From positions 443,920 through 507,919 of the forward strand of contig JBAZJI010000001.1 in the NCBI GenBank assembly GCA_041651395.1: DNA of 64,000 nt. The letters run 5' to 3'. Positions within the stretch are counted from its first letter, which is position 1; every line of letters begins with the position of its first letter. The notes beneath the pieces are model-generated. The model was not told the origin of the DNA. It worked only from the letters and a program-made list of their open reading frames with translations, and searched no databases. The stretch comes from Minisyncoccota bacterium. GTDB taxonomy: Bacteria > Patescibacteriota > Minisyncoccia > Minisyncoccales > JAGOPM01. Position numbers and translations under genes: made by a program. Below are positions 9,514 to 62,380 of the stretch, piece after piece.

Positions 9514-9573
9514 ATATTTGTTTTCTGCTCACATAATTGCACAAAACCCATAGCCTGTAAAGGGCGAATCGGC

Positions 9574-9600
9574 CGCAAAAAAAGCCCTAAAAAAGGGCGT
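9574..9600 (-). terminator. Putative rho-independent terminator
   Basis: Minus strand: GCCCT-tttttt-AGGGC followed by TTTTTTTGCG. The stem is short (5 bp) but the U-tract is strong. Confidence 0.4.
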
Positions 9601-9602
9601 TA

Positions 9603-10130
9603 TTATGCTTTATTTGTTACTTTGCTCTGGGCACTTTGAAGGATTTTTTTGTAAGTAGGCTTGGATTTTTTCGGTATCTTGGAAACAACTTCGGGTTTCG
9701 AAACAATACGCATGAAACTCAAATCATCATATGAAAAATCTTTGACAAGCTCCAAAATATCCAAACCCTTGGCAATGGCTATTTTCATAACCTTGAGGTC
9801 TTCGCGAATCTCGTAGACGTATAAGATCAGGGCCTCGGGCCTAATCGCATTTGACTCGCCTGAAAGTACTTTGACGGTTTGCGGCAGGGGGTAACTGCCG
9901 GCCAAGGTTTTGAGCGCTTTATAGCTCTCCTTGAAGGTGATAATCATTTCAATGCAACGCGAAAGGGTGATTTTGCCGGATTCCAACTCCTTTCGAGCAG
10001 CCTTTCTGGCATCAACTCGGCCAAAGCGCAATTTCCAAGTTTGAGTATTTTCAAAATTCTGCCGATCGTCCAAATCTCCGGGGCGCAAACTGTCGGCGTA
10101 ACCCTTCTTCTCCTCCTTACATTCAACCAT
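9603..10130 (-). CDS. Hypothetical protein (orphan with own consensus promoter)
   Basis: 175-aa ORF with an AAGGAGG RBS, a promoter at 10181-10208 and a terminator downstream. No family recognised. Confidence 0.55.
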   Translation of the reverse strand: MVECKEEKKGYADSLRPGDLDDRQNFENTQTWKLRFGRVDARKAARKELESGKITLSRCIEMIITFKESYKALKTLAGSYPLPQTVKVLSGESNAIRPEALILYVYEIREDLKVMKIAIAKGLDILELVKDFSYDDLSFMRIVSKPEVVSKIPKKSKPTYKKILQSAQSKVTNKA

Positions 10131-45434: not shown

Positions 45435-45890
45435 ATGAATGTCAGAGATTTATTCTGCGCCAAAGAAGACGGTAAACAAGAAAATGTTTACCTATTCTAC
45501 GTCATGGCCGCAACAAGCTCTGGGCTCAAAAGTACATTTTTGACCACGATCAGCCGAAGCGAAAAGAATGCTACCAATCGAGTAATCGAGGTAGCAACTA
45601 AAAAATTCTCTCCGGGCAAAACCGGCGGGCCAGAGCTTGTTGGGCAGCCTATCCCCGACTTAATCTTTGCTTGGCAATTCGGCGAAAATCTTGCCGAATG
45701 CCAACGTCGGCTTAGAGAGGCTCTCGAAATAAAATTTCCGAAAGCTAGCAACGAAATGAAAGACAGATTGGCTAACCCAATCTTGCTATTTCTGGCCAAA
45801 GTCAGCGGAGACCGCAAACCGCGATTTCCTAGGCCCTGGCCGCAAACAAAACAACAAAAGTCTGAAAAACAGACAGGAGGAAAAGCATGA
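45435..45890 (+). CDS. Hypothetical protein (cassette gene 1)
   Basis: 151-aa ORF with a strong RBS and promoter and a basic C-terminal tail. No family recognised. Confidence 0.55.
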   Translation: MNVRDLFCAKEDGKQENVYLFYVMAATSSGLKSTFLTTISRSEKNATNRVIEVATKKFSPGKTGGPELVGQPIPDLIFAWQFGENLAECQRRLREALEIKFPKASNEMKDRLANPILLFLAKVSGDRKPRFPRPWPQTKQQKSEKQTGGKA

Positions 45891-46060
45891 GTCCAACAAT
45901 GACAATCACGAAACCGCTGACAACACTGGGTGGGGTTACACTGGCAGCAAGCTCCAATCCCGATTGGCATCTTGTCCAAAAAATGAAAATCGCCAGCCAA
46001 CGCCAACAAAACCTGAAGCACGAAAAAAAGGAAACAGATCAGTGGAAAAAGTGGCATTAG
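45887..46060 (+). CDS. Hypothetical small protein (cassette gene 2, 57 aa)
   Basis: Hand-translated as MSPTMTITKPLTTLGGVTLAASSNPDWHLVQKMKIASQRQQNLKHEKKETDQWKKWH. It has an ATGA start/stop overlap with gene 1, AGGAGG 6 nt upstream, and hairpins downstream. It is below the ORF-track length cut-off. Confidence 0.4.
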   Translation: MSPTMTITKPLTTLGGVTLAASSNPDWHLVQKMKIASQRQQNLKHEKKETDQWKKWH

Positions 46061-46148
46061 CCATCCTCGAACAAAAACATAAGCCGCGTTTAGCCAGTCT
46101 CCTTTAGGGACAGGCCCGCGGCTTTCGTATTTTATCCTTAAAAAACAA

Positions 46149-46180
46149 AAGCCCCACCAAGGGGCTTGTTTATTTTTATA
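46149..46180. terminator. Bidirectional rho-independent terminator
   Basis: AAGCCCC-accaa-GGGGCTT followed by GTTTATTTTT on the + strand. An A-run upstream serves the convergent minus-strand gene. Confidence 0.65.
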
Positions 46181-46181
46181 G

Positions 46182-46745
46182 TTAACTTTTCTTAAAATAC
46201 GACAAATAATACGGGATATGCCAGAAGGCATGCGCTAATGCTAAACCTATCAGCCAAATTCCGGATTCCACATGCAGCTGATGCAAATTAGCGATACCTA
46301 AGTTATAGCCAAAATCGGTTTTAAGCAAAAATGCCAAACTGCTTATAGCGCAAACCAAAAAGCTGATTGCCAACAAAGCATTAAAAATTTTATTAGGCAG
46401 GGTCGGAGCCATGTTTCCCCTTTTTGCTACGATGGCCAAAAGCAAATACATCCCCCAAGAAAATAACCAAATTTTTACGAATTCAGTTTTGGCGCTAATC
46501 GGCGCCTCCTTGGCCGGGGCGGGCGATTTTTCAAAAGGCGCTTTTTGGGGAGCGTCACTAACAATTTCGGGCGCAGAAGTGGCAATTTCCGAATTATCGC
46601 AAATGCCGTTATTATTGCCATCCACATATAGCCCACATTCTCCATTACAGGAGGAATCTGTTTTGCCATTGGGGCAAGCTTGACCCAGGGCCAAAAACGG
46701 CAAAGCCAACAGTGCCACAAAAATGACAGCAAATTTTTTACTCAT
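46182..46745 (-). CDS. Membrane protein with a secreted Cys-rich N-domain and His-containing TM helices
   Basis: The start MSKKFAVIFVALLALPFLALGQA at 46745 lies 1 nt after the upstream stop. The N-domain reads CPNGKTDSSCNGECGLYVDGNNNGICD. It has 3-4 TM helices with HQLHVE and HAFWH. Confidence 0.55.
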   Translation of the reverse strand: MSKKFAVIFVALLALPFLALGQACPNGKTDSSCNGECGLYVDGNNNGICDNSEIATSAPEIVSDAPQKAPFEKSPAPAKEAPISAKTEFVKIWLFSWGMYLLLAIVAKRGNMAPTLPNKIFNALLAISFLVCAISSLAFLLKTDFGYNLGIANLHQLHVESGIWLIGLALAHAFWHIPYYLSYFKKS

Positions 46746-46746
46746 A

Positions 46747-47037
46747 TCAAATCTCCGTAATTTTATATTCCTTGCGGTCCGCATACTCGGCCTGCTTGCC
46801 GTCATTCCACTGGTTAACCGGCCGGATATAGCCGACTATCCGCGAATAAACCTCGCATTTCCGGAAATTGGCCAGCTCGGGATGCTTTTCATAGCAGGCC
46901 TTGCATTTAATTACCCGATAATCATCAAGCCCATCCTTGTAACCGAGCAAAACCGCATCAACTAACTCTTCCCCATTGAGCTTAATTTCTTTTTTGCAAT
47001 CATAGCAAAACAAATTATCTTTCTCGTTTTTTATCAT
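46747..47037 (-). CDS. Stand-alone NrdD C-terminal-like module (zinc ribbon plus glycyl-radical loop)
   Basis: CYDC...CKAC is followed by EVYSRIVGYIRPVNQWNDGKQAEYADRKEY, which resembles the class III RNR C-terminus (R-V-x-G-Y...WN.GK..E...R). I chose the ATG at 47037 (96 aa). An upstream GTG at 47088 is possible. Confidence 0.6.
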   Translation of the reverse strand: MIKNEKDNLFCYDCKKEIKLNGEELVDAVLLGYKDGLDDYRVIKCKACYEKHPELANFRKCEVYSRIVGYIRPVNQWNDGKQAEYADRKEYKITEI

Positions 47038-47208
47038 TTTGGTGTTTTTTATTTTTCGGCTTGGGTGCCCAAAAAGCAACAAGGCCACAGATTGTTGCTC
47101 TCAAAATTATGGATAGTCCAAGGAACAAAAAAGCGCAAACCTGCCCTAGTCGACAAATATTGCGCAATGTTCTGTATTTATTTTAAGTTATTTGCCCGCC
47201 TGGGCAAA

Positions 47209-50489: not shown

Positions 50490-53078
50490 TTACTTTCCCA
50501 ATAGGGCCTGAATCGCCTTATACATAGCCTCTAATTGCGCCTTGTCTGTGGGCAAACTATAGGTCGGCACCACAGCACTTAAAGTGGTTGCTGGTGTCGT
50601 AGTGGTACCCTTAACGCTTCCCATAATGGAATCAAATAAGGAATTAATTTTATCCATGGTGGCCTTATCCAGTTCGCCAGAAGTCGGCAAATTGTATTTT
50701 TTCTGGAAGGCCGAGAGCGCACTTTCAACACCAGTGGTAAAAGTTCCGTTGGCTGCCCATTTATAAAATCCGGCCTTATAGAGGAATTTTTGGAGCATGG
50801 ATACATCATCGCCCTTGGCGCCAAAAGCCCTCAATACACTGAATTTATATCCGACTACAGAAGGCGTGCTAGCCGCTGGTTTGGTGGTTGTGCCCGTTGC
50901 GCTAACGCCTAAAATGGCATTTAGCTTAACCATGGTCGCGGCATCTACTATACCGGTAACTGCCAGTTTATATTTGGCTTGGAAAAGCTTCAGGGCGGTT
51001 TGGGTGCTGGCTGTCAAAACACTATTGGGCAAATATTTATAAAATTTCTCCTTATAAAGTATTTGTTGGAGCTGTTTAACATCCTCCCCTTTGGCGTTGA
51101 GTTTCAGAACTGCCGTAAACTTGAATGGGCCAACATCATAATAAGGCACATTAGCATTCATAAAACGCATGGTGATATCGTCTAAAATGCCGGTGTCGTC
51201 AAGCTTGTATTTGAGCTGGTAGGCTTTCATCGCCGCCTTGGTAGCGGTATCCAAGATGCCGGTAATCGGACCAGTGTAAAACTTCTCGAATATTAAACGC
51301 TTTTGCAGTTCCTTCACATCATTGCCGGCTTTGCCAAACCAAATGGTAGTCGGGAAAATATAACCCTTCACCTTATTGGCCGTTGAAACTATTGCACCGA
51401 TTGTTCCGCCTTGGGCAGTCACTGCCGGAGCATTAGCATTCAAATAATTGCGGGTTTTGAGATCAAGCATGCCGCTTTGCGTTAAGCGGTTTTCCACCTG
51501 ATATTCTTTCAAAGCTTTGGCTGTATCCGCGGAAAAATAATTGGTAATATTACCGCGATAAAAACCTTCCTTTTTAAGAATATTATGCAAAGCAATAATA
51601 TCGGCACTGCTGTCGCCTTGTTCAAGATCCTTCGTGAATTGGTAGCGGTTAACGTTATCGGTGGTTTGCGTTGTGGCGGTTCTATTGATTTCCCACTCAT
51701 ATTCAGTCGGGGTAGTTTGCCACACACCGCCGCTGCTCTTGCCTAGAACATAAAGCCGGTGCAATTCCCCTTTTGCCAAACCAGTCAACGAAATTTTTGT
51801 CGCCACCGGGGTCTCGGAACCATACGAGCCGCTGTCCAATTTATATTTGTAATGGGTCACATTGGTGCCACCAACTGTAATATTAATGGAAGTATCATTG
51901 GTCGGATCACTGGGCATACCGGAAATTTCCGCAGTCGGAGCGCTACCCGGATTCACGGTCCAAATATAAGTAGTCGGAGAAGATTGCCAGTTGCCCGCCG
52001 CATCCCGGCCGGCCACATAAAGCGTATGCTGCCCGGCGGTAAGATTGGAAGCGGTCAAAACTTGGCTGATAGGCAAATCGGCACTATAACCACCGTTATC
52101 GATATAATATTTGTAATAAGTCACATCTGCCCCGCCAACCGTGATATTGAGCGAAGTAGACTCGGTTGGATTGGCCGGCTTATTGCTTAAAGTCACCTCG
52201 GTGGGCGCAACTGAGTCAAAAGTAAAGCTGTCGGTTTTGGTTGTTGAACCGTTAGCGCTCGCAAAAGAGATTGTGCAAGTTTTGGCCCCTTGGGCTGTAT
52301 TGCTGGCCAAAGTGATGGTCATGTTATTGGCACCTGATAAAAATGAACCGCTCAAAGCCACACAATCGGGGCCGCCAACCGTAAACGTTCCGGTGGCATT
52401 AGCCGTAAAGGCATAGGCATAAGTCATCGAATTGGTCAAAGTCGGAATAGCATGGCTTTCAGTGATAGCCAAAGGAGCGATATTGGAAATAGTAACACTG
52501 ACCGGATTAGAATCGGCCGAGTTTCCCGCCGCATCAATAGCCTTGACAAAAATCATTAAGGGTCCATTAGCAGCGCTTGCAGAATTCCATGACAAAGTGG
52601 GATTTCCCTCGCCCAGTTTAGTGAAGCTTCCGTTATAAAATTCATATTTGCTGATGCCCGAACCGATTTCGGTAGCCGAACCGGTCAAGGAAACACTTCC
52701 GGTCAAAGTAGCACCGGCAGCCGGAACAGTTAAAGCCACTGCTGTCGGGGCGGTTTTATCAATTTTAATGCTCACATCGCCAGCCCCAGCGACAGTCACA
52801 CCATTTGAGTCAACAGCTTTGTAGCGCAAAATTGTTTCCCCTTCGCTGCTGGCAATATACGATGCTCCGGCAGTAGTCGGGTCGCAAGCTGCGCCAGTGC
52901 AATAATAGGTGATGCAGGTCGAAGTGCCATCAGGTGCACATGACAAAGAAGCCGTCACATTGGAATTAGTCCATGTGCCTGCCGTATAAGTGCCCAGGCT
53001 ATGACTAACTGTCATAGCGCTTGCATTAAGGCCAATAATGGCAAATGCAAACATAAAAAAGAGCAATGCTTTTTTCAT
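50490..53078 (-). CDS. Secreted protein with Ig-like domains and four peptidoglycan-binding (PG_binding_1-like) repeats
   Basis: 862 aa with a signal peptide and an Ig-like region (IDKTAP...). Four repeats fit the pattern G..G.DV..LQ..L....FY.G...G.....T..A...(Y/F)Q.K(Y/N).L..(T/S)G.(L/V)D..T. Confidence 0.75.
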   Translation of the reverse strand: MKKALLFFMFAFAIIGLNASAMTVSHSLGTYTAGTWTNSNVTASLSCAPDGTSTCITYYCTGAACDPTTAGASYIASSEGETILRYKAVDSNGVTVAGAGDVSIKIDKTAPTAVALTVPAAGATLTGSVSLTGSATEIGSGISKYEFYNGSFTKLGEGNPTLSWNSASAANGPLMIFVKAIDAAGNSADSNPVSVTISNIAPLAITESHAIPTLTNSMTYAYAFTANATGTFTVGGPDCVALSGSFLSGANNMTITLASNTAQGAKTCTISFASANGSTTKTDSFTFDSVAPTEVTLSNKPANPTESTSLNITVGGADVTYYKYYIDNGGYSADLPISQVLTASNLTAGQHTLYVAGRDAAGNWQSSPTTYIWTVNPGSAPTAEISGMPSDPTNDTSINITVGGTNVTHYKYKLDSGSYGSETPVATKISLTGLAKGELHRLYVLGKSSGGVWQTTPTEYEWEINRTATTQTTDNVNRYQFTKDLEQGDSSADIIALHNILKKEGFYRGNITNYFSADTAKALKEYQVENRLTQSGMLDLKTRNYLNANAPAVTAQGGTIGAIVSTANKVKGYIFPTTIWFGKAGNDVKELQKRLIFEKFYTGPITGILDTATKAAMKAYQLKYKLDDTGILDDITMRFMNANVPYYDVGPFKFTAVLKLNAKGEDVKQLQQILYKEKFYKYLPNSVLTASTQTALKLFQAKYKLAVTGIVDAATMVKLNAILGVSATGTTTKPAASTPSVVGYKFSVLRAFGAKGDDVSMLQKFLYKAGFYKWAANGTFTTGVESALSAFQKKYNLPTSGELDKATMDKINSLFDSIMGSVKGTTTTPATTLSAVVPTYSLPTDKAQLEAMYKAIQALLGK

Positions 53079-53125
53079 ATTATTGATAGATTATTTTTAA
53101 AATTTAGTAATCTTATTATAGTTCA

Positions 53126-53160
53126 ACGAAAAAACCCCGCAAGTTGTGACAGGCGGGGTT
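53126..53160 (-). terminator. Rho-independent terminator
   Basis: Minus strand: AACCCCGC-(12 nt)-GCGGGGTT followed by TTTTCGTTG. Confidence 0.65.
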
Positions 53161-53173
53161 TTGTGTTTTAGCA

Positions 53174-55990
53174 TTATTTAGTTTTAAGCTTAAGCAATAA
53201 CTGAAGCAACTCGATGAGAATCTTGATCAAGTTCGCCCTATTGCTTTGCGCACCTAAAACTGCTGGCTTGCTGCTGGTTGAAACTCCCAAGACAGTTGGC
53301 TTAATCTTTTTCAAAGCCGGATCAAGCTGCCCCAGAGACATACCACCGCCTCCGCCCCCTACTGGGACAGGAGCGGGCTTGGCAATTACATTAACTGTCC
53401 GGGCCATTTGGTTGGCCTCATTTCCCGTTTCATCCATCACGTCATAAGTAACAAGGTAAGAGCCGATAACGGCAGTATTGACCATATTTTTTACCTTGAT
53501 TCTGGAAGTGATATCGCCATCCTTATTATCATTAGCCGTGGCCCCCGCATCATTATAAGCATCACCAACATAAACAGTGACCGGGTTATCGCCCAAAATA
53601 GTTATTACGGGATTCTGCAAATCTTTTTCAGTAAAAAATGTCTGCCAAGCCAAATATGGATATCCATCATTTTTATTGGCATCTATTCTCCAGATTCCTT
53701 CAAAATCAAATCCCTGATAACTCGCCCACTGCTTTGACTGGGCGTCAGTCAAACCATTGGAATCATTGCAACTTTCCGGACTATTATACTGCGTACTGCC
53801 GCACATTATACTTCTATCAGAAGTTTCTTTATTCCAATATGAATTTGTTTGGCTGGCTCCTTGGTATTGCCAACCAATCAAGCCGCCATTAGCATCTTGC
53901 CACTGCGAAGAATTTCCGACTTTCGCCACGGAGTAAGAATTAAAAACATTTGTATTTTCGCTTAAGCCAACTATTCCACCCCCTTGAGTTGCTACCATTT
54001 TTCCTTTAGCATAGCAGTCCGTCACTCTTCCGCCGTAGTTCTGTCCGGCAATAATACCGGCATATCCGGGACCGCCATATCCGCTATCTAAGCTCGATAT
54101 TTCTAAGTCAGCCCAACTTTGAGAAATTGTGCCGCTATTTTGGCTGGCAAGACCGCCGCATTTACCAGAACACGCAAGTTTTCCAGTGATACCAACTTTT
54201 TCTATTGTTCCAGAATTAACATTGGCAAGAACAGCGCAATAAGTTGAATTGCAAATAACATCAACATCCTTGAAGACAACATTCTCAATCTTTCCTCCTT
54301 GTAGATATCCGAATATTCCTCTATTTCCTCCACTGTTAATATAAATGCCAGAGACTATATGGTTTTTCCCATCTATCTTTCCAGAAAATCCGTTATTATG
54401 TCCGATTTCTTCAAAACCTTGACCATTATTCCAACTTCTTGTCACCGAGCAATCAATGTCATTTTCAATAGTGTAGTACCATCTCAAGTGATTTCGCACA
54501 TCTTGCAACTCCTGGCAATTAGTAATCTTGGCTTGGTTGCCAGAGGTGCCCAAGCTGTAATTATTGATAGTAATAGTCTTGGGAGAAGAAGTGGCGACAT
54601 TGCCAGCATTGTCGGTAGCAATGGCAAACACCTTGTATGTTCCGTCGGTTGTTGAGGCTGTATTCCATGAAAAAATATGGGTTGGAGCATAGTTATAACT
54701 ATAGGATTCTCTTTGACTTAAATCTTTACAATTGTTTGACGAAATTGGATTATCAGGATTTTCCGCTCCAAATAAAATGCAAACATTTTTAATTAAAGAG
54801 TTATTATCCTCTCCATAAGTAGTTAGGGAAATATTACCAGAAACCTCGCTATTATTTTCTGGACTATCAATTCTGATAGTTGGAGCGGTTGTATCAGTGC
54901 AGTCTTCATCTATAGACTGATCGCAATCATTATCTTTTTGGTCACCGCAAACTTCTGCGCCCGTAGCTATACAATTATATGTATCGCAAGCATTTCCAAT
55001 TTTATCATTATCATCATCTAATTGATTAGAATTTCTAACTAATGGACAATTATCTACTGAATCATCTATACCATCTTGATCTGAATCTTGTACTGCTTCG
55101 CAAGCATCGCCTACTTTGTCACCATCTGTATCTGCTTGGCTAGGATTTGCTACTTGGGTGCAATTGTCGCAAGCATCGCCAATACCGTCAGAATCGGCAT
55201 CTGCTTGGTTGGAATTGGCAACAAATTTGCAGTTATCCGAAGAATCCGGAACACCATCGGCATCAGTGTCGGTTGGGGCAGTGCAAACATCACCCACTCC
55301 GTCAGAATTAGAGTCAACTTGGCTAGAATTAGCAATGTTTTGGCAATTGTCACAAGCATCGCCTACTTTGTCACCGTCAGTATCTACTTGGCTAGGATTT
55401 GCTACTTGGGTGCAATTATCTAAGGAATCTTGAATACCGTCAGCATCAGTGTCGGTTGGGGTGGTTTCAGTCTGGCAGCTAGCATCGCAGCCATCGCCAG
55501 GAGCTTTATTGCCATCATCGCAAGTTTCCCCTTGCTCGATAGCTCCATTACCACATTGAGCAATTAAAGCGCAAAGACTCGGATTGCCAGAACATTGCCA
55601 ATTAGCTTCAATGGCGCAAATTTCTGAACAGCCGTCTTCGGGCATCAGATTGCCATCATCGCAAGTTTCCCCTTGCTCGATAGCTCCATTACCACATTGC
55701 GATTGCGCGACAGTGTGGCAGGTATTATCGCAAGCATCATCATTTACCGAGTTATCATCATCACATTCCTCTCCGGCCTCTACCGTTCCATTTCCACAAA
55801 CTACAGGAACTTCGATTTGACAAGTGGCATCGCAGCCATCGCCGGGTGCTTTATTGCCGTCGTCGCAAGTTTCGCCAGTTTCGGTTACGCTATTACCGCA
55901 AGACGATCCTTCTGCAATAACTCTTGGCGCTACCGCAAACGCGCAAAGCGCAAAAATCATTGCTAAGAATACTAATAATTTCTTTTTCAT
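53174..55990 (-). CDS. Secreted protein: Cys-rich CGNG..ETCDDGN repeats, thrombospondin type-3-like Ca-binding repeats, GLUG-motif region, DUF5011-like Ig domain
   Basis: 938 aa with a signal peptide. It has 4 copies of CGNGxxExGExCDDGNxxxGDGC and repeated DTDADG(I/V).DS.DNC..VAN..Q.D.D.D..GDACDNC. GGLASQNSG / GGGIVGL / GGLIGW are GLUG-like. PVITILGDNPVTVYVGDAYNDAGATA is DUF5011-like. Confidence 0.75.
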   Translation of the reverse strand: MKKKLLVFLAMIFALCAFAVAPRVIAEGSSCGNSVTETGETCDDGNKAPGDGCDATCQIEVPVVCGNGTVEAGEECDDDNSVNDDACDNTCHTVAQSQCGNGAIEQGETCDDGNLMPEDGCSEICAIEANWQCSGNPSLCALIAQCGNGAIEQGETCDDGNKAPGDGCDASCQTETTPTDTDADGIQDSLDNCTQVANPSQVDTDGDKVGDACDNCQNIANSSQVDSNSDGVGDVCTAPTDTDADGVPDSSDNCKFVANSNQADADSDGIGDACDNCTQVANPSQADTDGDKVGDACEAVQDSDQDGIDDSVDNCPLVRNSNQLDDDNDKIGNACDTYNCIATGAEVCGDQKDNDCDQSIDEDCTDTTAPTIRIDSPENNSEVSGNISLTTYGEDNNSLIKNVCILFGAENPDNPISSNNCKDLSQRESYSYNYAPTHIFSWNTASTTDGTYKVFAIATDNAGNVATSSPKTITINNYSLGTSGNQAKITNCQELQDVRNHLRWYYTIENDIDCSVTRSWNNGQGFEEIGHNNGFSGKIDGKNHIVSGIYINSGGNRGIFGYLQGGKIENVVFKDVDVICNSTYCAVLANVNSGTIEKVGITGKLACSGKCGGLASQNSGTISQSWADLEISSLDSGYGGPGYAGIIAGQNYGGRVTDCYAKGKMVATQGGGIVGLSENTNVFNSYSVAKVGNSSQWQDANGGLIGWQYQGASQTNSYWNKETSDRSIMCGSTQYNSPESCNDSNGLTDAQSKQWASYQGFDFEGIWRIDANKNDGYPYLAWQTFFTEKDLQNPVITILGDNPVTVYVGDAYNDAGATANDNKDGDITSRIKVKNMVNTAVIGSYLVTYDVMDETGNEANQMARTVNVIAKPAPVPVGGGGGGMSLGQLDPALKKIKPTVLGVSTSSKPAVLGAQSNRANLIKILIELLQLLLKLKTK
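55101..55420 (-). repeat. Intragenic direct repeat (TSP3-like units)
   Basis: 68-nt copies at 55101-55168 and 55353-55420 differ at 4 positions. The offset is 252 nt (84 codons). Confidence 0.8.
55508..55699 (-). repeat. Intragenic direct repeat (Cys-rich units)
   Basis: Exact 51-nt copies at 55508-55558 and 55649-55699. The offset is 141 nt (47 codons). Confidence 0.85.
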
Positions 55991-56071
55991 AATAATTTTA
56001 ACTAATGTATTCTACGAACTTTTTGTAAATTAACAAGGACGTGCGATTGCTCGCATGCCCTTGTTTTTAGC

Positions 56072-57574
56072 TTACGCTTGGTAGGTTGTGCTTTTGATTT
56101 CCTGCAAACCTTTGTGGATTTTTTGCAATTTCTTTCTCTGGTAATGCCAATAAGTCCACACGCAGAGCAAGGTAATCATAATCACCCAGAACCACCAAAG
56201 CATGATGATATCGGGGCAAATCCATTTCAGAAGAAGTAAAACAATAAGGATAATAATCGGGAAAATAAGCGATTGGAAAAATAGTTTACCGTCGAACTTC
56301 CTGTCATTCTCGGTTAAAACATAACCAAGCTGCTTAATTTTTTTGCGCAGCATGTCCTTGCGATTCTTTTCGTAAAGGCACAAGCAGAGCATCAAAACGG
56401 CTAAAATCCAAGGAATATCATCATAGGTGCCGCAGGCCGTGGCATTAATGCCAAAGGCAGAAAGCAAACTCTTAACCGGCTCTTCTTCTTTGCAATCACA
56501 TTCCTTATCCGCGCAGGCACAAGTCGAGCTGCCGGCCACTATGCCAGCGGGCACGGATTTCTTGGTGAGATCCGGCTCGCCGAAATTCCTGTAATCATGG
56601 GTTTCAATGGTAGAAGTGCCCTCCACGCAACCGGGGGTGGTAAAAGCATATTCGCGACTCATGGCAATTTTTGGGTTTCCGGAAAACACGCGAAAATAAT
56701 ATTTGGTGCAAGAAGTCAGATTAACTAAACCGATAGAATGGTTAAAAGCATACTCAGTCTTTTTTAGGCTTTCATTAGTGTAGCCATTGTGTGGTTTAGT
56801 CCCGTCAAAAACATGATTGCCGGTCTCAGGAGAATACATGACTTGGCTGTCGCCTTTGCAATTAGTCGCCCAAACAATGTCAGCAGATTTGGTTTGAATA
56901 TTCTGAGCCTTCACGGAAGTGACCGGGTTTTCGATAATCCAAATTTCGCAACCCGAGCCGCCGCCACCTCCACCGCCACCTCCACCGCCTCCACAGTTAG
57001 GGCCGGTGCAAGGCGGGTCAGAATGGCAAGATGGACCAACGCAGGGGCAATTTGGCCCCTCGCAAGGCGGATTATATTGGCCAAGAAAACCAATGACAAT
57101 ATCAAAATTAGTCCTCTTTTGCTGCCAAGTAGTCGGGGAAACCGGCAAATCACCCTTATCAGTAGAAATACTCAAGGTGAAATCATACTGCTGCATTTGG
57201 CCGGCATTAATATCGGCAAGGAAAATTTCCCCGGCTTGATAAAAGTCAAAAAGAGTTTTGGCCCCCGAAGATGAATTGCCTCCCCAGAGATCCACCCCGC
57301 CCTTGGATATTTTCATATCCAAAGCACGCGCCAAATCGTCACTGGGCGTGGGATTGGGAAAATTCTCCGCATAAACCGCGACCTTATTGGGGGCCGTAGT
57401 ATTATTGGTTACTTTAATAAATCTCGTGACGCCATCGCCGGGCAAAACATTAGCCTCGTTGAATAACGGTGTATTTTCAAACTGCACCGTGATATTGGAA
57501 GAGGCTTGGGCCACTGTCCCAATCGCGAAACAGAGCGTCAGCGCTATCGTTGTAATTAATTTTGCGTATTTCAT
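56072..57574 (-). CDS. TasA/camelysin-like N-domain protein with Cys/Pro + poly-Gly linker, FN3-like region and C-terminal multi-TM anchor
   Basis: The start MKYAKLITTIALTLCFAIGTVAQA at 57574 gives 500 aa; the track extends to 57733. The N-domain reads NITVQFENTPLFNEANVLPGDG..FIKVTNN, followed by a G12 run. The C-terminus has 3-4 hydrophobic helices. Confidence 0.6.
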   Translation of the reverse strand: MKYAKLITTIALTLCFAIGTVAQASSNITVQFENTPLFNEANVLPGDGVTRFIKVTNNTTAPNKVAVYAENFPNPTPSDDLARALDMKISKGGVDLWGGNSSSGAKTLFDFYQAGEIFLADINAGQMQQYDFTLSISTDKGDLPVSPTTWQQKRTNFDIVIGFLGQYNPPCEGPNCPCVGPSCHSDPPCTGPNCGGGGGGGGGGGGSGCEIWIIENPVTSVKAQNIQTKSADIVWATNCKGDSQVMYSPETGNHVFDGTKPHNGYTNESLKKTEYAFNHSIGLVNLTSCTKYYFRVFSGNPKIAMSREYAFTTPGCVEGTSTIETHDYRNFGEPDLTKKSVPAGIVAGSSTCACADKECDCKEEEPVKSLLSAFGINATACGTYDDIPWILAVLMLCLCLYEKNRKDMLRKKIKQLGYVLTENDRKFDGKLFFQSLIFPIIILIVLLLLKWICPDIIMLWWFWVIMITLLCVWTYWHYQRKKLQKIHKGLQEIKSTTYQA

Positions 57575-57599
57575 ACTTTTTGTTTGTTTAATTGATTGG

Positions 57600-60149
57600 T
57601 TAAATGGTGGGTTCGGCGGGTACTGGCTCAACTGGGGCTTGCTCGGGGGCAGCAGGCTGTTCGGCTGAAACTGCCTCGGCAATAATTTCTGGATTATTTT
57701 CAGGCTGCGGTTCAGGGGTAGCTGGCGTCTCACTTAAAACTTCAGGCATTTGAGTCTCATCAGTCGCGGGCTGTGGCTCAACTGGCGTTGAAACTTCCGC
57801 AACCACTGGGGCCGGAGCCGGAACAGAAGCAGCCGGCTCGATTATAACTTCCGGAGTAGTGGTAGCCGCTTGCGTATCCTCAACGCTAGGCGTAGTGGTA
57901 GCAGGAGCTGTCTCGGGAATAATTTCTGGCGTGTTGGTCGCCAATTCAGGTGAATTTATCGCCTCTGTTGATGTAGGCAAAGTTGTAGTAGCGATCTCCT
58001 CACTGCTGGTAGCCACGGCCAAACCTGGCTGAGTTGGCAGAGTATCAACAATTTCGGGAGTTGGAGTACTACCGCCGGCACCTTCCATTGGCAATTCAGG
58101 AGCCTCTTGGGTAGTCGTAGCTTCGCTGCTGGTAGGAACAATTAATAAATCATTTAACTTATCGGCAAATTCATCCATGGGCACGACTTCCAAAACATTG
58201 GCGCTGCCCGGAGTCGGGATCGGATCAACCCAAGAACCAGTACCATCGGGAATTCTGGCAAATGATTTATTAGCCGGAACAGTCGTGCAGGTTCCAGAGA
58301 CTGCAGCTGAATTAGTTGCGTCCGGCGTGGGCAATATGGTGCAGGCATTAGTCGTATCAAAAGTATGGGAATCGACAGGATTGCCAAAAAGATCATAGAA
58401 AGCGATAGTGTCGCCACCATTAGACATAAACTCGCCATTCATGTAAACAACCAGCCAATCATGGGAATTGATTATCGTATCGCCGGTATTGGTAGTAATA
58501 AAAGCCGTGGCTTTCGAAATGTATTTTTTCGTACCTAAAGCGTTCTGGAAATAAAAACCATCTAAATCAACGGCTGAGCTGCCATTGTTATAAAGTTCAA
58601 TCCACTCGCCTTTGGGCTTAAAGCTGGAATCATGTCCCCAAGTTGTGCTGCTGGGGTATGGCAAATATTCATTAAGCACAACAAATTTTTGCGCCTCTTC
58701 TTGCTCGTAGAAAACGCGGGCTTCATGCAAAATTGGCGTAGAAATTGGCGGCCAAAATGTATCCGAAGTCAGATCAGCTTTCCAGCGTATATAACGCGTC
58801 TGGGGCAAAGTCGATAAGTCGATTGGGCTAGTAGATGATTTTAATTTCCAAGAACTCCAGTTGCTTGCGTCATTAGATGTTTGCACCGAGAAAGCAATAT
58901 CCGTGCCGTTTACCAAAGTTTCATCCCATTCCAATTTGGTCCACTTGGTAATTTTACCGCTATCAAAAGTCTGGGACTGCAAGGTAGCTGTGCCATCAAA
59001 CCAAGGAAGCTCACGCTTAAAACTTGTAAATTCATCGATTGCTGGATTCCCGCTTGTATCAAGAAAAACAATACGCGCGCATTTAATCATCCTCTCGGTA
59101 AACTCAATGGTTAAAAAACTGCTATTGTTATTGCTGCTACTTTTTACTATCACCTGCTCACCAGCATAAGCGCAAGTCGGACTAACTTCTACCCGATATT
59201 TATACGGGATGTGTGGATGATGAAAATCAATTTCAATTTTAGCGACCGGGTAAAGCATTCCATAATCAACTCCAAACCAATCAGCATCACTTGCCTGAGT
59301 CGCTTTCCAATAAGTTGCCGTATCTCCGTCGATAGCTTTTGAAGGAATATGTTGTCCATCATTGTCCCCAGAAAAACTTGCCGTCATCGGTGGTATTTCT
59401 CCGCCCGCGGCAATAGAAACATCACCTGTTCCATCAGTGGCCGGGCTTACGGCAATTTCTTTCTTTCCGCAGCAATCATAGCTTGGAGTTCCGGCATTAA
59501 AATCAGCCTCAGTGGTTTGCACCCAAATTCCTTCAATTTTCCAAGTGCCGGCTAAAATCGCGTTGGGCATTGTTTCCAAATCAGAAAATCCCACTCCGGA
59601 AACTAAATCTTTTTGCTTAGCCAAAACATTAAAATCAAGATTGCAAGTTTGGTTTTGTAAAATATATGAAGCGCCATTTGGCAGCGAAGCTTCAAAATGC
59701 CAATTAGCAGCAGTTGGAGAATAATCGGCCACCTCGTATGAAAATAATTTGAGCGGGCCATTATAAACCGATACGCCATCCAAAGTCGCCTGCAAGTTCA
59801 AACTGTCGCAGAGCGCACCAATGGTATTAGTGGCAAAAATCGTATATTGAAAACCAAGGCTCCCATTATTGGCAATGGCCATATCCTTAGTTGCCACCAC
59901 GCTGCCCGGCAAAACCGCGGGAGAAAAATCCGCTCCCGAGCTTAAAGATTGGTCCAAGGTGCCGGCGCCAAAAATATTACCGCCAGAAATTTCCGTATCA
60001 ACCAATTTAGCCACAGTGTAACTCATAGGCGTATTGGCCAAAGCAATAGAAACAATCATCAAGGCAGCAGAAAGCTTCTTGACGGCCGCCTTCGGCTTAA
60101 TCTTGGCAAATAAGGCTCTTATTTTCTTTTTTGCGTCTTGCAAGGACAT
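57600..60149 (-). CDS. Large secreted TasA-like N-domain / discoidin-like / lamin-tail-domain protein with a Pro/Thr/Glu-rich tail
   Basis: 849 aa. The N-domain is paralogous to 60176-62380 (GADFSPAV..FQYTIFATN..CDSLNLQATLDG). AIDGDTATYWKA is F5/8-type-C-like. The LTD reads VVLNEYLP..GEWIELYNNG..VDLDGFYF ... RIPDGTGSWVDPIPTPG. Confidence 0.65.
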   Translation of the reverse strand: MSLQDAKKKIRALFAKIKPKAAVKKLSAALMIVSIALANTPMSYTVAKLVDTEISGGNIFGAGTLDQSLSSGADFSPAVLPGSVVATKDMAIANNGSLGFQYTIFATNTIGALCDSLNLQATLDGVSVYNGPLKLFSYEVADYSPTAANWHFEASLPNGASYILQNQTCNLDFNVLAKQKDLVSGVGFSDLETMPNAILAGTWKIEGIWVQTTEADFNAGTPSYDCCGKKEIAVSPATDGTGDVSIAAGGEIPPMTASFSGDNDGQHIPSKAIDGDTATYWKATQASDADWFGVDYGMLYPVAKIEIDFHHPHIPYKYRVEVSPTCAYAGEQVIVKSSSNNNSSFLTIEFTERMIKCARIVFLDTSGNPAIDEFTSFKRELPWFDGTATLQSQTFDSGKITKWTKLEWDETLVNGTDIAFSVQTSNDASNWSSWKLKSSTSPIDLSTLPQTRYIRWKADLTSDTFWPPISTPILHEARVFYEQEEAQKFVVLNEYLPYPSSTTWGHDSSFKPKGEWIELYNNGSSAVDLDGFYFQNALGTKKYISKATAFITTNTGDTIINSHDWLVVYMNGEFMSNGGDTIAFYDLFGNPVDSHTFDTTNACTILPTPDATNSAAVSGTCTTVPANKSFARIPDGTGSWVDPIPTPGSANVLEVVPMDEFADKLNDLLIVPTSSEATTTQEAPELPMEGAGGSTPTPEIVDTLPTQPGLAVATSSEEIATTTLPTSTEAINSPELATNTPEIIPETAPATTTPSVEDTQAATTTPEVIIEPAASVPAPAPVVAEVSTPVEPQPATDETQMPEVLSETPATPEPQPENNPEIIAEAVSAEQPAAPEQAPVEPVPAEPTI

Positions 60150-60175
60150 AAAATTAAATTATTTGATAAAAATTA

Positions 60176-62380
60176 TTACTTGATATCAACAACATTTTGC
60201 CCGCTCGCGCTCGCCTCGACAGATACTGTTTGGGCAACAGTTAAAGTTGGTGTAATTTCAACAACCGGGGTAATGACTGGCTCATCAGGCGTAGGCGTTA
60301 AGGGATTAGGATTAGGATCGGGCAAATTGGTCTCGCTTGGAGCAACTAATTCAGTATTAGGTTCTTGAGCAGGAGGCGTTTGCACGTCCTGAGCTGCCGG
60401 AACAATCGGGGTTACTGGTAAAACCGGCAGACTAGGCAAAGTGCTGCTGCTATCAAGAATAATGACAGTCGTGCTAGGTGTAATTTCGGGTTGCGGATTA
60501 ATAATCAAACCAGCATCAATAATAATTGTGCCAGTCGGTGCCACTGAAGTGACGGCAATAGGCGGATTAACGAGCAGCATATCATTTAAGCCCCCGATAA
60601 TTGTTTCCACTGGCGGGATAATGCTTGAACTGCCTCCGCCTCCACTGCTGCTTTGGGTAAGAGTATCGGAAGTGCTAGCCGTTGCATTGCTGGTCGTGGC
60701 AATCTGAACAAACGGAATAGTAGTTGTAGTCGTAGTAGTGGTATCTTGGGCCGGCGTAGTAGTGCTTATAACCTCGGGAGTGGTAGTCGCCTGATTTTGG
60801 GCGGCCAAAATTTCCAACTCAGCCAAAGTTAACTGGTTAGGAGCCCCGGGCGTAGGTCTGGGATCAACCCAAGTAGCTGCCCCGTCTGGATAACGGGCAA
60901 TCGATTTATCGGCCAAAGCCCAAGTGCTGGTGCAGTTACCATACGGCTCATCGTCATTGGTTGGCGGGATAACACCAGTATTATCGCAAGCGGGCGTACC
61001 GAAACTATGCGAGTCAATAACGCTCCAATCGCGATTATGCAAAGTAACGGTATCTCCCCAATTACTCATAAAACCTCCCGGGACGTAAACCACCAAGTAA
61101 CCATTGGGACCGATAACCGTTGAGCTACTCATGGTTGAAGCATTAGAAATCATGTATGGAAAGCCCATTTGGTTGCGCAAATAAAATCCATTCAAATTAT
61201 AAGAGCTGGCCGGAGAATTATTATAAATTTCAACCCATTCACCGGATAAACCAAAACTTGTTACATCATAACCGGCTGGATTGGGTAATAATTCGTTAAG
61301 AACAACCGTATTGGGCGGAATTACTTTGGCCTTTTGCGGCATAGTGGTCACGCCGCTCCATGATTCACAATCGTCTATATATTCGAAGTTGAGCCTTAAT
61401 TTCTGCGCTGCGCCGTCACAATCCTCAAAAAGAATATCCCCGCCATAGGCGTACAGATAATTCATGGTCGGGTGCATTAAGACCAAAGAGAATTTACTCG
61501 AAGAAGTGGCTGCTTGCCTATACCAAACCACACCGCTCATGCCAGCAAAATTCTCATCAGCTGAACCAAACATGGTGGTGTATTGCGAAGTGCTCGGAGT
61601 AATTTGGTGAAAATAATTGGTCGGAGCGCTATTGGCATACCGAACATTGATAGAGGAGCAATCTATCTGTTCCCCGCTTTGGCAATTCACGTCATAAACA
61701 ATGCTTTCTTCTCGGCAATTCGGCTGCATAAAACCAATACTGACTAAAACGCTCAAATGCCCGGGTTCTCCATTATATTGGGCGCATTTATTAGGCTTGT
61801 TGCCGTTCCAAATATCGGCCCTAATAATAGAGGGCACACGCTCAATATCGCGAAAGCCGCGATATTCCGGGAAGCCCATTTGCCAAGCCTTATAAACAAT
61901 ATCAAATTGGCAAACTTGGGCCTGGAGAGCTGCGTCGGAAGAATTAAGATTGGCGGTAAAAGTCCAGTTGGCTGGCTCCTCGTATGGGGCCTGGGCGACA
62001 AAATTAGAAAGTAAGCCGGTATACATCGGCGTGCCATTAAGCGAAGCAACCACATTCAAATTTTGGCAAAGGGTGCCATTAAAATTTTCAGCTACCACTT
62101 TATATTGAAAAGGCACGGTTGAGCTAACGTCTGAAAGAGTAATATAGCGCACTGCGGAGCTGCTGGGGCTAACCATCGGAGAAAAATCTGCTGCGCTTTC
62201 GGGCATAATATCGACTATGCCGGCATCTAAATTATTATTAAAGCTGATTTCAATATCATTATAAAAAGCCAAAGCAAAACCGGCCGGGAATTGCATTATC
62301 AAAATGCCGGCAAACAGGGCTGAAGATATTATTTTTTTGATACTGGTATTCATATGGCTGTTTGGCTTTTCAATTATCAA
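60176..62380 (-). CDS. Large secreted TasA-like N-domain / lamin-tail-domain protein with a Thr/Pro-rich tail
   Basis: 734 aa. The signal/anchor region is followed by FALAFYNDIEISFNNNLDAGIVDI. The LTD reads VVLNELLP..GEWVEIYNNS..YNLNGFYL ... RYPDGAATWVDPRPTPG, followed by a T-rich tract. Confidence 0.65.
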   Translation of the reverse strand: MIIEKPNSHMNTSIKKIISSALFAGILIMQFPAGFALAFYNDIEISFNNNLDAGIVDIMPESAADFSPMVSPSSSAVRYITLSDVSSTVPFQYKVVAENFNGTLCQNLNVVASLNGTPMYTGLLSNFVAQAPYEEPANWTFTANLNSSDAALQAQVCQFDIVYKAWQMGFPEYRGFRDIERVPSIIRADIWNGNKPNKCAQYNGEPGHLSVLVSIGFMQPNCREESIVYDVNCQSGEQIDCSSINVRYANSAPTNYFHQITPSTSQYTTMFGSADENFAGMSGVVWYRQAATSSSKFSLVLMHPTMNYLYAYGGDILFEDCDGAAQKLRLNFEYIDDCESWSGVTTMPQKAKVIPPNTVVLNELLPNPAGYDVTSFGLSGEWVEIYNNSPASSYNLNGFYLRNQMGFPYMISNASTMSSSTVIGPNGYLVVYVPGGFMSNWGDTVTLHNRDWSVIDSHSFGTPACDNTGVIPPTNDDEPYGNCTSTWALADKSIARYPDGAATWVDPRPTPGAPNQLTLAELEILAAQNQATTTPEVISTTTPAQDTTTTTTTTIPFVQIATTSNATASTSDTLTQSSSGGGGSSSIIPPVETIIGGLNDMLLVNPPIAVTSVAPTGTIIIDAGLIINPQPEITPSTTVIILDSSSTLPSLPVLPVTPIVPAAQDVQTPPAQEPNTELVAPSETNLPDPNPNPLTPTPDEPVITPVVEITPTLTVAQTVSVEASASGQNVVDIK

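Follow-up and report, generated by a model that had tools for sequence, protein, structure and literature searches.

A stand-alone glycyl-radical domain in a Minisyncoccota bacterium as a candidate spare part for class III ribonucleotide reductase

Introduction

What use might a bacterium have for a gene that encodes only the extreme C-terminal end of a class III ribonucleotide reductase (RNR)? The question is raised by a small gene, termed mini-NrdD here, on the minus strand of a 64,000-nucleotide (nt) stretch of DNA from a Minisyncoccota bacterium (GenBank assembly GCA_041651395.1, contig JBAZJI010000001.1, positions 443,920–507,919). The whole stretch is referred to below as the window. From sequence comparisons, the 96-amino acid (aa) product of the gene is an autonomous glycyl-radical domain of class III RNR, composed of a four-cysteine ribbon, a loop that contains the glycine G69 and a C-terminal tail.

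Glycyl-radical enzymes are destroyed by oxygen via cleavage at the radical glycine. To our knowledge, pyruvate formate-lyase (PFL) is the only one with a known repair route, which is provided by the small protein GrcA/YfiD. For NrdD, cleavage by O2 at the radical glycine has been described (PMC12288474). A 2026 review reports no spare-part protein outside the formate lyases, and the possibility of such repair beyond PFL was also raised in 2021 (PMC8683613). A description of a stand-alone NrdD radical domain was not found in the searchable literature.

Domain identity of mini-NrdD

The minus-strand open reading frame (ORF) at 46747..47088 may be read as a 113-aa protein from a GTG start or as a 96-aa protein from the ATG at 47037. 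The 96-aa form (MIKNEK...KITEI; NCBI MFA5166111.1) was taken as the real product because homologs begin at the ATG rather than the GTG and because the upstream extension is not conserved in a 93%-identical relative. An exact look-up of the 113-aa product returned no record, and the 96-aa form is on record from contigs of the same species only. Relatives are considered below in two classes: class A, with a length of 81–160 aa and both a zinc ribbon and a glycine loop, and class B, with a length of 45–66 aa and the loop alone. The window protein belongs to class A and its gene has the following features.

46747..47037, minus strand: mini-NrdD coding sequence (96 aa, class A, stop codon included), the ATG start being backed by homologs
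46894..47007, minus strand: zinc ribbon, consisting of C11-x2-C14, a 30-residue β-hairpin and C45-x2-C48, with the four Cys invariant in 40 family members
46795..46857, minus strand: glycyl-radical loop C61–K81 (CEVYSRIVGYIRPVNQWNDGK), with the predicted radical G69 at codon 46831–46833
47038..47088, minus strand: in-frame extension up to the GTG, completely different in the 93%-identical relative (locus L010) and probably a 5' leader rather than coding sequence

The sequence hallmarks of the mini-protein are CYDC (C11, C14), CKAC (C45, C48), C61 and the loop SRIVGYIRPVNQWNDGKQAEYADRKEY / SRIVGYIRPVNQWNDGK. Across 40 class-A sequences, the four ribbon cysteines, C61-E-V-Y-S-R, G69, Y70, R72, P73, Q76, W77 and K81 are invariant. 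The R-x-x-G-Y signature of the NrdD glycyl-radical loop is present as SRIVGYIRP with the invariant G69 and Y70, and C11, C14, C45 and C48 provide the four ligands of a predicted structural zinc site like that at the C-terminus of NrdD. The ten-stranded α/β barrel of NrdD with its finger-loop cysteine is missing.

This arrangement was also apparent from profile searches. The Pfam NRDD model (PF13597) was matched solely at its final positions (521–562 of 562) with an E-value of 5e-12, above the gathering score. TIGR02487 was matched at positions 537–580 of 581 with 40.6 bits against a cut-off of 326; the mini-protein fails this test for NrdD equivalogs because it has no barrel. The original prediction had described the ORF as a zinc ribbon and a glycyl-radical loop with no catalytic barrel, and had proposed that the idea be dropped if no significant similarity to the NrdD C-terminus was found; on both counts it stands. 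A Pfam scan of the mini-protein with E-values up to 1 returned NRDD and a weak zinc ribbon only, with no PFL-type radical domain. Neither NCBIfam nor Pfam holds a model dedicated to mini-NrdD, and the models for full-length NrdD are the only ones that match, in part.

In a profile–profile comparison with hhalign, residues 41–96 aligned with the C-terminus of Paceibacteria-type NrdD (probability 99.7%, E = 3e-26), which places the second zinc knuckle over the CPxC of NrdD. Residues 1–40, comprising the first knuckle and the hairpin, are specific to the family with no counterpart in the NrdD sequences compared. The best match of the radical loop among solved structures was T. maritima NrdD 610–645 (PDB: 4COI/4U3E). 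An AlphaFold2 model calculated from a 40-sequence alignment had a mean predicted local distance difference test score (pLDDT) of 66, in which the ribbon was folded as hairpins (block-mean pLDDT 70–80) and the glycine loop scored low. In a Foldseek search against the PDB, no structure reached E ≤ 0.001 and what came up were generic ribosomal proteins with zinc ribbons. Such a fold search is uninformative, as might be expected since the domain folds against a barrel.

Family size and selection

A word-indexed protein search gave 162 relatives, short in all those listed. Since this search yields length-matched proteins only (42–129 aa for the 96-aa query, 126–258 aa for a 147-aa query) and did not once bring up full-length NrdD proteins whose tails are near-identical, missing long matches do not signify absence. 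An exhaustive hidden Markov model search of 1.84 billion representatives gave 544 matches at E ≤ 1e-10; approximately 125 of the best 150 representatives (50%-identity clusters) were small proteins of class-A architecture. Hosts of the family are candidate-phyla-radiation (CPR) bacteria and metagenome-assembled genomes (MAGs) labelled Desulfobacterota.

Between the window gene and its counterpart in L010, the proportions of nonsynonymous (pN) and synonymous (pS) differences are 0.053 and 0.83, with synonymous sites saturated. A further 13 class-A pairs drawn from all context types gave uncorrected pN/pS ratios of 0.08–0.37. By these measures, mini-NrdD is a real gene under strong purifying selection and not a fragment.

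One metagenomic member (L141, 1345–1878) is a 177-aa fusion of a glutaredoxin/NrdH-like domain (CFHC; Pfam Glutaredoxin E = 1e-6) to the class-A module. Redoxins such as NrdH, glutaredoxin and thioredoxin serve as reductants for RNRs, and this single instance links the class-A module to RNR turnover. An apparent 424-aa fusion at L030 was set aside as an artefact of an out-of-context upstream start.

Genomic context of class-A genes

Loci were gathered by exact-protein look-ups and by scanning species-representative genomes and metagenome contigs, the latter with the C-terminal 53 residues (second zinc knuckle through tail) as the query. Neighbors were searched from called ORFs. The 86 non-redundant class-A loci may be grouped as follows.

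16 loci: directly 3' of a complete nrdD whose own EVYSR-x2-GY-x-RP tail is retained (nrdD of 709–751 aa where the gene is whole on the contig)
11 loci: directly 3' of an nrdD that ends just past the CPxC zinc knuckle
At least 20 loci: in clusters with a Fur-family gene, rubrerythrin, desulfoferrodoxin and/or hemerythrin, unlinked to nrdD
Remainder: no recurrent neighbor; mostly Desulfobacterota-type, which have an additional helix at the N-terminus, or on short contigs

In the first group, nrdG and nrdR are usually present as well. Because nrdD keeps its own glycine loop in these 16 loci, the mini-gene there is a second copy of the module and not one half of a split. Among the nrdD-linked species genomes (n = 21), NRDD was found upstream of the mini-gene in all 21, a radical S-adenosylmethionine/Fer4_12 protein (NrdG) downstream in 15 and NrdR in 13. 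No NrdG lies near the mini-gene in the window.

In the second group, the truncated nrdD bodies are intact ORFs of 693–774 aa that are 73–80% identical to complete relatives and share 323 invariant columns with the cysteine pairs included. Some retain remnants of the loop, for example TEVFLKVGEE and STVYLKVVMAD. A comparison of two of them (L025 and L033) gave a pS of 0.66 and a pN of 0.04. From their sequences, these genes are not pseudogenes and are under strong purifying selection. Since an nrdD without a glycine loop is nevertheless maintained by selection, its radical must come in trans from the class-A protein next to it, and the 11 loci may be regarded as natural, if genomic, evidence for trans-complementation. 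One of the truncated genes (L021, 5682–9260) is an nrdD of 1192 aa that carries an intein (Pfam Intein_splicing E = 1e-16) and no glycine loop, followed by a class-A mini-gene and nrdG.

Beside a complete nrdD, the tail of the mini-protein is 81–100% identical in aa to that of its cognate NrdD (up to 97% in nt), against a mean of 70–78% for non-cognate pairs. Such likeness would be expected if both tails use the same barrel docking site and activase, or if the two were homogenized by gene conversion. At four loci (L040, 8021–10435; L027, 2814–5229; L038; L052), the mini-gene matches the adjacent complete nrdD over the final ~32 codons of each at 90–97% nt identity, and nothing in nrdD corresponds to the earlier part of the mini-gene, which suggests repeated gene conversion between the two tails.

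PerR-like operons and the lineage of the window gene

The third group of loci points to a link with oxidative stress. In six loci, the Fur-family gene overlaps the start of the mini-gene by ~29 nt. PerR models far outscored Fur and Zur models for the four Fur-family genes taken from such operons (L001, L004, L016, L019), at 88–103 bits versus 38–65 bits for the best Fur model, and for the Fur-family gene of L097, at 82 versus 52 bits, all scores being below the curated cut-offs. The promoters of perR–mini operons have a DnaA-box-like TT(A/T)TCCACAG element 0–12 nt before a TTGAC −35 element (L001 ~9560–9640, L004, L016–L019, L024 and L097 ~1680–1730) and AT-rich palindromes resembling Fur/PerR boxes (e.g. 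TTAATAATAATTATTATTAA) over or past the −10 element. In the window, TTWTCCACAG is not enriched (4 copies versus 1.6 expected, with 9 of 100 shuffles reaching 4) and the sole copy near the mini-gene falls within the end of the upstream coding sequence.

The nearest relatives of the window gene in species genomes (51–58% identity) are mostly of the PerR/rubrerythrin type. Closer relatives share the synteny of the window, with a gene for an HI0933-like flavoprotein upstream and genes for an M17 peptidase, a methyltransferase and a UvrD-type helicase downstream. At L097, the mini-gene is 74% identical and the order is PerR-like gene, mini-gene, M17 peptidase; the peptidase neighbor is held in common with the window. 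This order ties the window lineage to the PerR arrangement, from which it appears to derive with local loss of the regulator. The region upstream of the window gene presents two features of its own.

47180..47207, minus strand: promoter-like site (TTGCCC, 16 nt, TAAAAT) 3' of the upstream HI0933-like flavoprotein gene; a consensus match only, with a count not above shuffled controls
47076..47100, minus strand: leader hairpin ~40 nt ahead of the start codon, read from the sequence as GCAACAA-N9-TTGTTGC and then TTTTT

The hairpin sits between the promoter-like site and the start of mini-NrdD. It is kept in L010 and L011, and two A's of the stem are replaced by G's in L010 with G–U pairing preserved. 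It could serve in attenuation or as a small regulatory element. An AT-rich palindrome resembling a PerR box was not visible upstream of the window gene.

Proposed role and alternatives

With these contexts in mind, the following mechanism is proposed. NrdG, presumably encoded elsewhere in the genome, would install a radical on G69. The module would then dock in the barrel of NrdD, stand in for the built-in C-terminal domain and hand the radical to the active-site cysteine, and may thereby restore an NrdD that oxygen has cleaved at its glycyl radical. The gene would descend from PerR-controlled oxidative-stress operons, and expression may be induced by oxidative stress.

That the window gene encodes a radical module acting in trans on NrdD is considered very probable, an assessment that combines two forms of the role. 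The first, a spare part analogous to GrcA/YfiD, is the one that we favor as probable. It was among the options of the original prediction and has gained from relatives that sit beside a complete nrdD–nrdG pair or in PerR-like operons. Several points weigh against it. The window has no PerR-like gene and no PerR-box palindrome upstream of the mini-gene, so that stress induction is inferred from relatives only. Both nrdD and nrdG are absent from the 64 kb, so the genome may have a complete NrdD, a truncated NrdD or none. Class-A members of the Desulfobacterota type have no informative neighbors, and the AlphaFold2 model is only moderate (pLDDT 66) with no significant match in the fold search.

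In the second form, mini-NrdD would be the obligate small subunit of a split NrdD: the nrdD of this genome would lack its glycine loop and the module would be needed at all times. Splitting of NrdD, which the original prediction had also raised, is real in the 11 loci where the mini-gene lies beside a truncated but selected nrdD, and simpler splits exist in the 45–66-aa loop peptides that have no zinc ribbon. An obligate subunit would also be consistent with a window gene that bears a promoter-like site of its own and lacks a PerR-like neighbor. However, in all 11 split cases the mini-gene adjoins nrdD, and that of the window is unlinked. Moreover, the closest relatives reside in PerR-type operons, where repressing an essential subunit until stress occurs would make little sense, and 16 loci pair the mini-gene with a complete nrdD. 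An obligate subunit is thus unlikely here, while still deserving serious attention.

A role as a decoy or regulator has also been considered, whereby the mini-protein competes for NrdG or acts as a sacrificial sink for radicals or oxygen, lowering the radical loading of NrdD under stress. This would suit a gene that sits in PerR-like operons and retains a zinc ribbon and a glycine loop, which are all that an activase should recognize. Yet the lineages with loop-less nrdD suggest that the module is catalytically competent in trans, and the tail past the loop, which co-evolves with the cognate NrdD tail, fits docking in the barrel and would be needless in a decoy. Such a function is regarded as improbable.

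The downstream membrane protein

The mini-NrdD gene is followed by a gene for a membrane protein, with which it forms a two-gene unit.

46182..46745, minus strand: 187-aa membrane protein with a signal peptide, a four-Cys head, a Pro/Ala linker and a DUF4405-like C-terminal helical module with a conserved His
46149..46167, no strand assigned: bidirectional hairpin resembling an intrinsic terminator that closes the two-gene unit

As the original prediction had noted, the two genes are separated by 1 nt: the TGA stop of mini-NrdD occupies 46749–46747 and the ATG of the membrane gene begins at 46745. A GGAG lies ahead of the membrane gene within the 3' end of mini-NrdD. Its description of the 187-aa protein also held, with a signal-peptide-like N-terminus, a Cys-rich head, hydrophobic stretches from approximately residues 89 and 116–127, and a C-terminal AHAFWHIPYY. 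The head (CPNGKTDSSCNGECGLYVDGNNNGICD) bears a weak mark of PF27309 (MJ0753_N). Matches to DUF4405 (PF14358) were below threshold, with E-values of 0.024 and 0.0066 and 15.6–17.4 bits against a gathering score of 26.7, and a 101-aa relative scored 20.8 bits; these matches span the whole 66-position profile.

This proximity led to the suggestion that mini-NrdD could be a radical/zinc module repurposed to work with the Cys-rich, His-bearing membrane protein, for example in membrane redox or metal handling. The 1-nt spacer, the shared terminator and the GGAG inside the first gene indicate a two-gene unit, and the pair is present with the same spacer in all of the more than 20 same-species contigs examined. 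In addition, the gene next after the mini-gene in the 93%-identical relative is a SIMPL gene, behind which comes the 101-aa gene (L011, 1750–2055), which matches the last 70 residues of the membrane protein at 57% identity; thus, the helical module recurs two genes downstream.

The distribution of the membrane gene argues otherwise. The slot after the mini-gene is empty in a relative of 60% identity, and the survey of co-occurrence that the original prediction had called for found the membrane gene in none of ~80 other family loci. Only two homologs of the membrane protein, with 92% and 83% identity, were found among 5.8 billion proteins. On what is probably a single contig, judging by the shared recorded length of 6448 bp, the membrane protein is just 83% identical and the mini-protein is 100% identical, which would mean very different evolutionary rates. 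Lacking a signal peptide, the mini-protein would reside in the cytoplasm. The GC composition of the membrane gene showed no anomaly and no sign of horizontal insertion. The membrane protein was therefore rejected as a conserved partner, and a repurposed module is very improbable. In terms of gene order, the membrane gene is co-transcribed with mini-NrdD in this species and stands outside the system. It is a species-level neighbor in a slot that is variable, and its coupling reflects local operon structure, not a functional hallmark of the family.

The last alternative, a decaying and functionless remnant of nrdD, would account for an ORF that matches the last part of NrdD only with no nrdD or nrdG nearby, and it can be dismissed, as refuted by the conservation data: a pN of 0.05 with synonymous sites saturated, motifs that are invariant in 40 members, an N-terminal knuckle and hairpin that are specific to the family and not found in NrdD, and a family that is large.

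The remainder of the window

A tblastn search of the 64 kb with NrdD, NrdG, NrdR, Fur, rubrerythrin, desulfoferrodoxin and hemerythrin queries found nothing besides mini-NrdD, which bears out the earlier observation that neither an nrdD body nor nrdG is present. Pfam scans of the large ORFs in the window identified ordinary CPR housekeeping and surface proteins. Three further observations may be listed.

45435–45890, plus strand: 151-aa ORF on the opposite strand, in the interval separating the membrane gene from that of the M17 peptidase, with a weak counterpart (25% identity, E = 2e-4) in a sister species and a UPF0150-like match below threshold
45497–46231, minus strand: long antisense ORF overlapping the 151-aa ORF, probably spurious
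50490–62380, minus strand: series of very large putative surface proteins of the kind typical for CPR envelopes, with PG_binding_1 repeats, thrombospondin type 3 repeats, DUF4215 Cys-rich repeats and lamin-tail, F5/8 type C and Ig-like domains

Comparison with known systems

Mini-NrdD invites comparison with GrcA/YfiD and phage T4 Y06I. Each is a small stand-alone protein that is essentially the radical domain of its parent enzyme. GrcA/YfiD occurs alongside genes for the whole parent enzyme and for its activase in the same genome, as observed for mini-NrdD in the 16 related loci, and both are linked to stress, here through the PerR-like operons. The proposed logic is also the same: the parent's activase would load the radical and the module would replace the C-terminus that was cleaved by oxygen. 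In contrast, the parent of mini-NrdD is class III RNR and not PFL, and the mini-protein has a four-Cys zinc ribbon and no long disordered N-terminus. Given this ribbon and the lack of a PFL-type match, mini-NrdD is best considered an analog of GrcA and not a family member. A further difference is that the parent's built-in domain has been lost in some mini-NrdD lineages, where the module would be obligatory.

The radical domain of NrdD is composed of a zinc site, a buried loop and a tail, and moves as a rigid and highly mobile body (PMC11226230). The order of zinc site, buried glycine loop and surface tail in mini-NrdD is that of the NrdD radical domain of P. copri (676–739), T. maritima (4COI/4U3E) and phage T4 (1H7A). 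It differs in being a separate polypeptide with no barrel, ATP-cone or finger loop and in its extra first zinc knuckle and hairpin of ~30 residues, which are not seen in the NrdD sequences compared.

Functional RNRs can consist of two pieces (PMC3653736). In the split class II RNR NrdJa/NrdJb, the C-terminal zinc-finger part is a separate polypeptide (PMC9669993), much like mini-NrdD. However, NrdJa/NrdJb and the phage nrdD genes that are split by introns, inteins or endonucleases are single-copy splits, whereas mini-NrdD often coexists with an intact nrdD copy, can be remote from nrdD and is set in a regulatory context of its own.

The class-B proteins come closest to a conventional split. 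At these loci (L007, 7824–10864; L068, L069, L083, L084, L088, L093, L132, L139, L154 and L163–L168), an nrdD that ends right after the zinc site is followed by a 45–66-aa gene for the glycine loop and tail and then by nrdG. They are present in MAGs labelled CPR, Micrarchaeota, Thermotogae and Dojkabacteria, and an Aenigmarchaeota-labelled protein (P0093) has a class-B sequence. By gene order, class B looks like a true two-piece NrdD. Class B shares its loop and tail with mini-NrdD and occurs between nrdD and nrdG in CPR and DPANN-type lineages. Unlike the window protein, which has a ribbon and stands alone with no adjacent nrdD, class-B proteins have no ribbon and lie beside a truncated nrdD or beside nrdG where the flanks are known. 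Class A carries its own ribbon and class B does not because the NrdD partner of class B keeps the zinc site.

Significance

The mini-NrdD family provides a concrete candidate for the spare-part question, in an enzyme that makes the DNA precursors of anaerobes. Whether it represents the first such system for a glycyl-radical enzyme beyond PFL, with PerR-type control in many CPR bacteria and a built-in domain that is dispensable in several lineages, is a proposition for which we see the balance as even. The protein is small and easy to express, and lineages with complete and with truncated NrdD offer natural controls. Several public entries name family members as "anaerobic ribonucleoside-triphosphate reductase" or "hypothetical protein". 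With the former name in the records, metabolic reconstructions may count a full RNR where none has been shown.

In evolutionary terms, the family would show a spare part turning into an obligatory subunit over time. If the proposed role is true, strict anaerobes could restart DNA-precursor synthesis after a transient exposure to oxygen, which would help to explain how CPR bacteria with minimal genomes and sulfate-reducer relatives survive oxic pulses.

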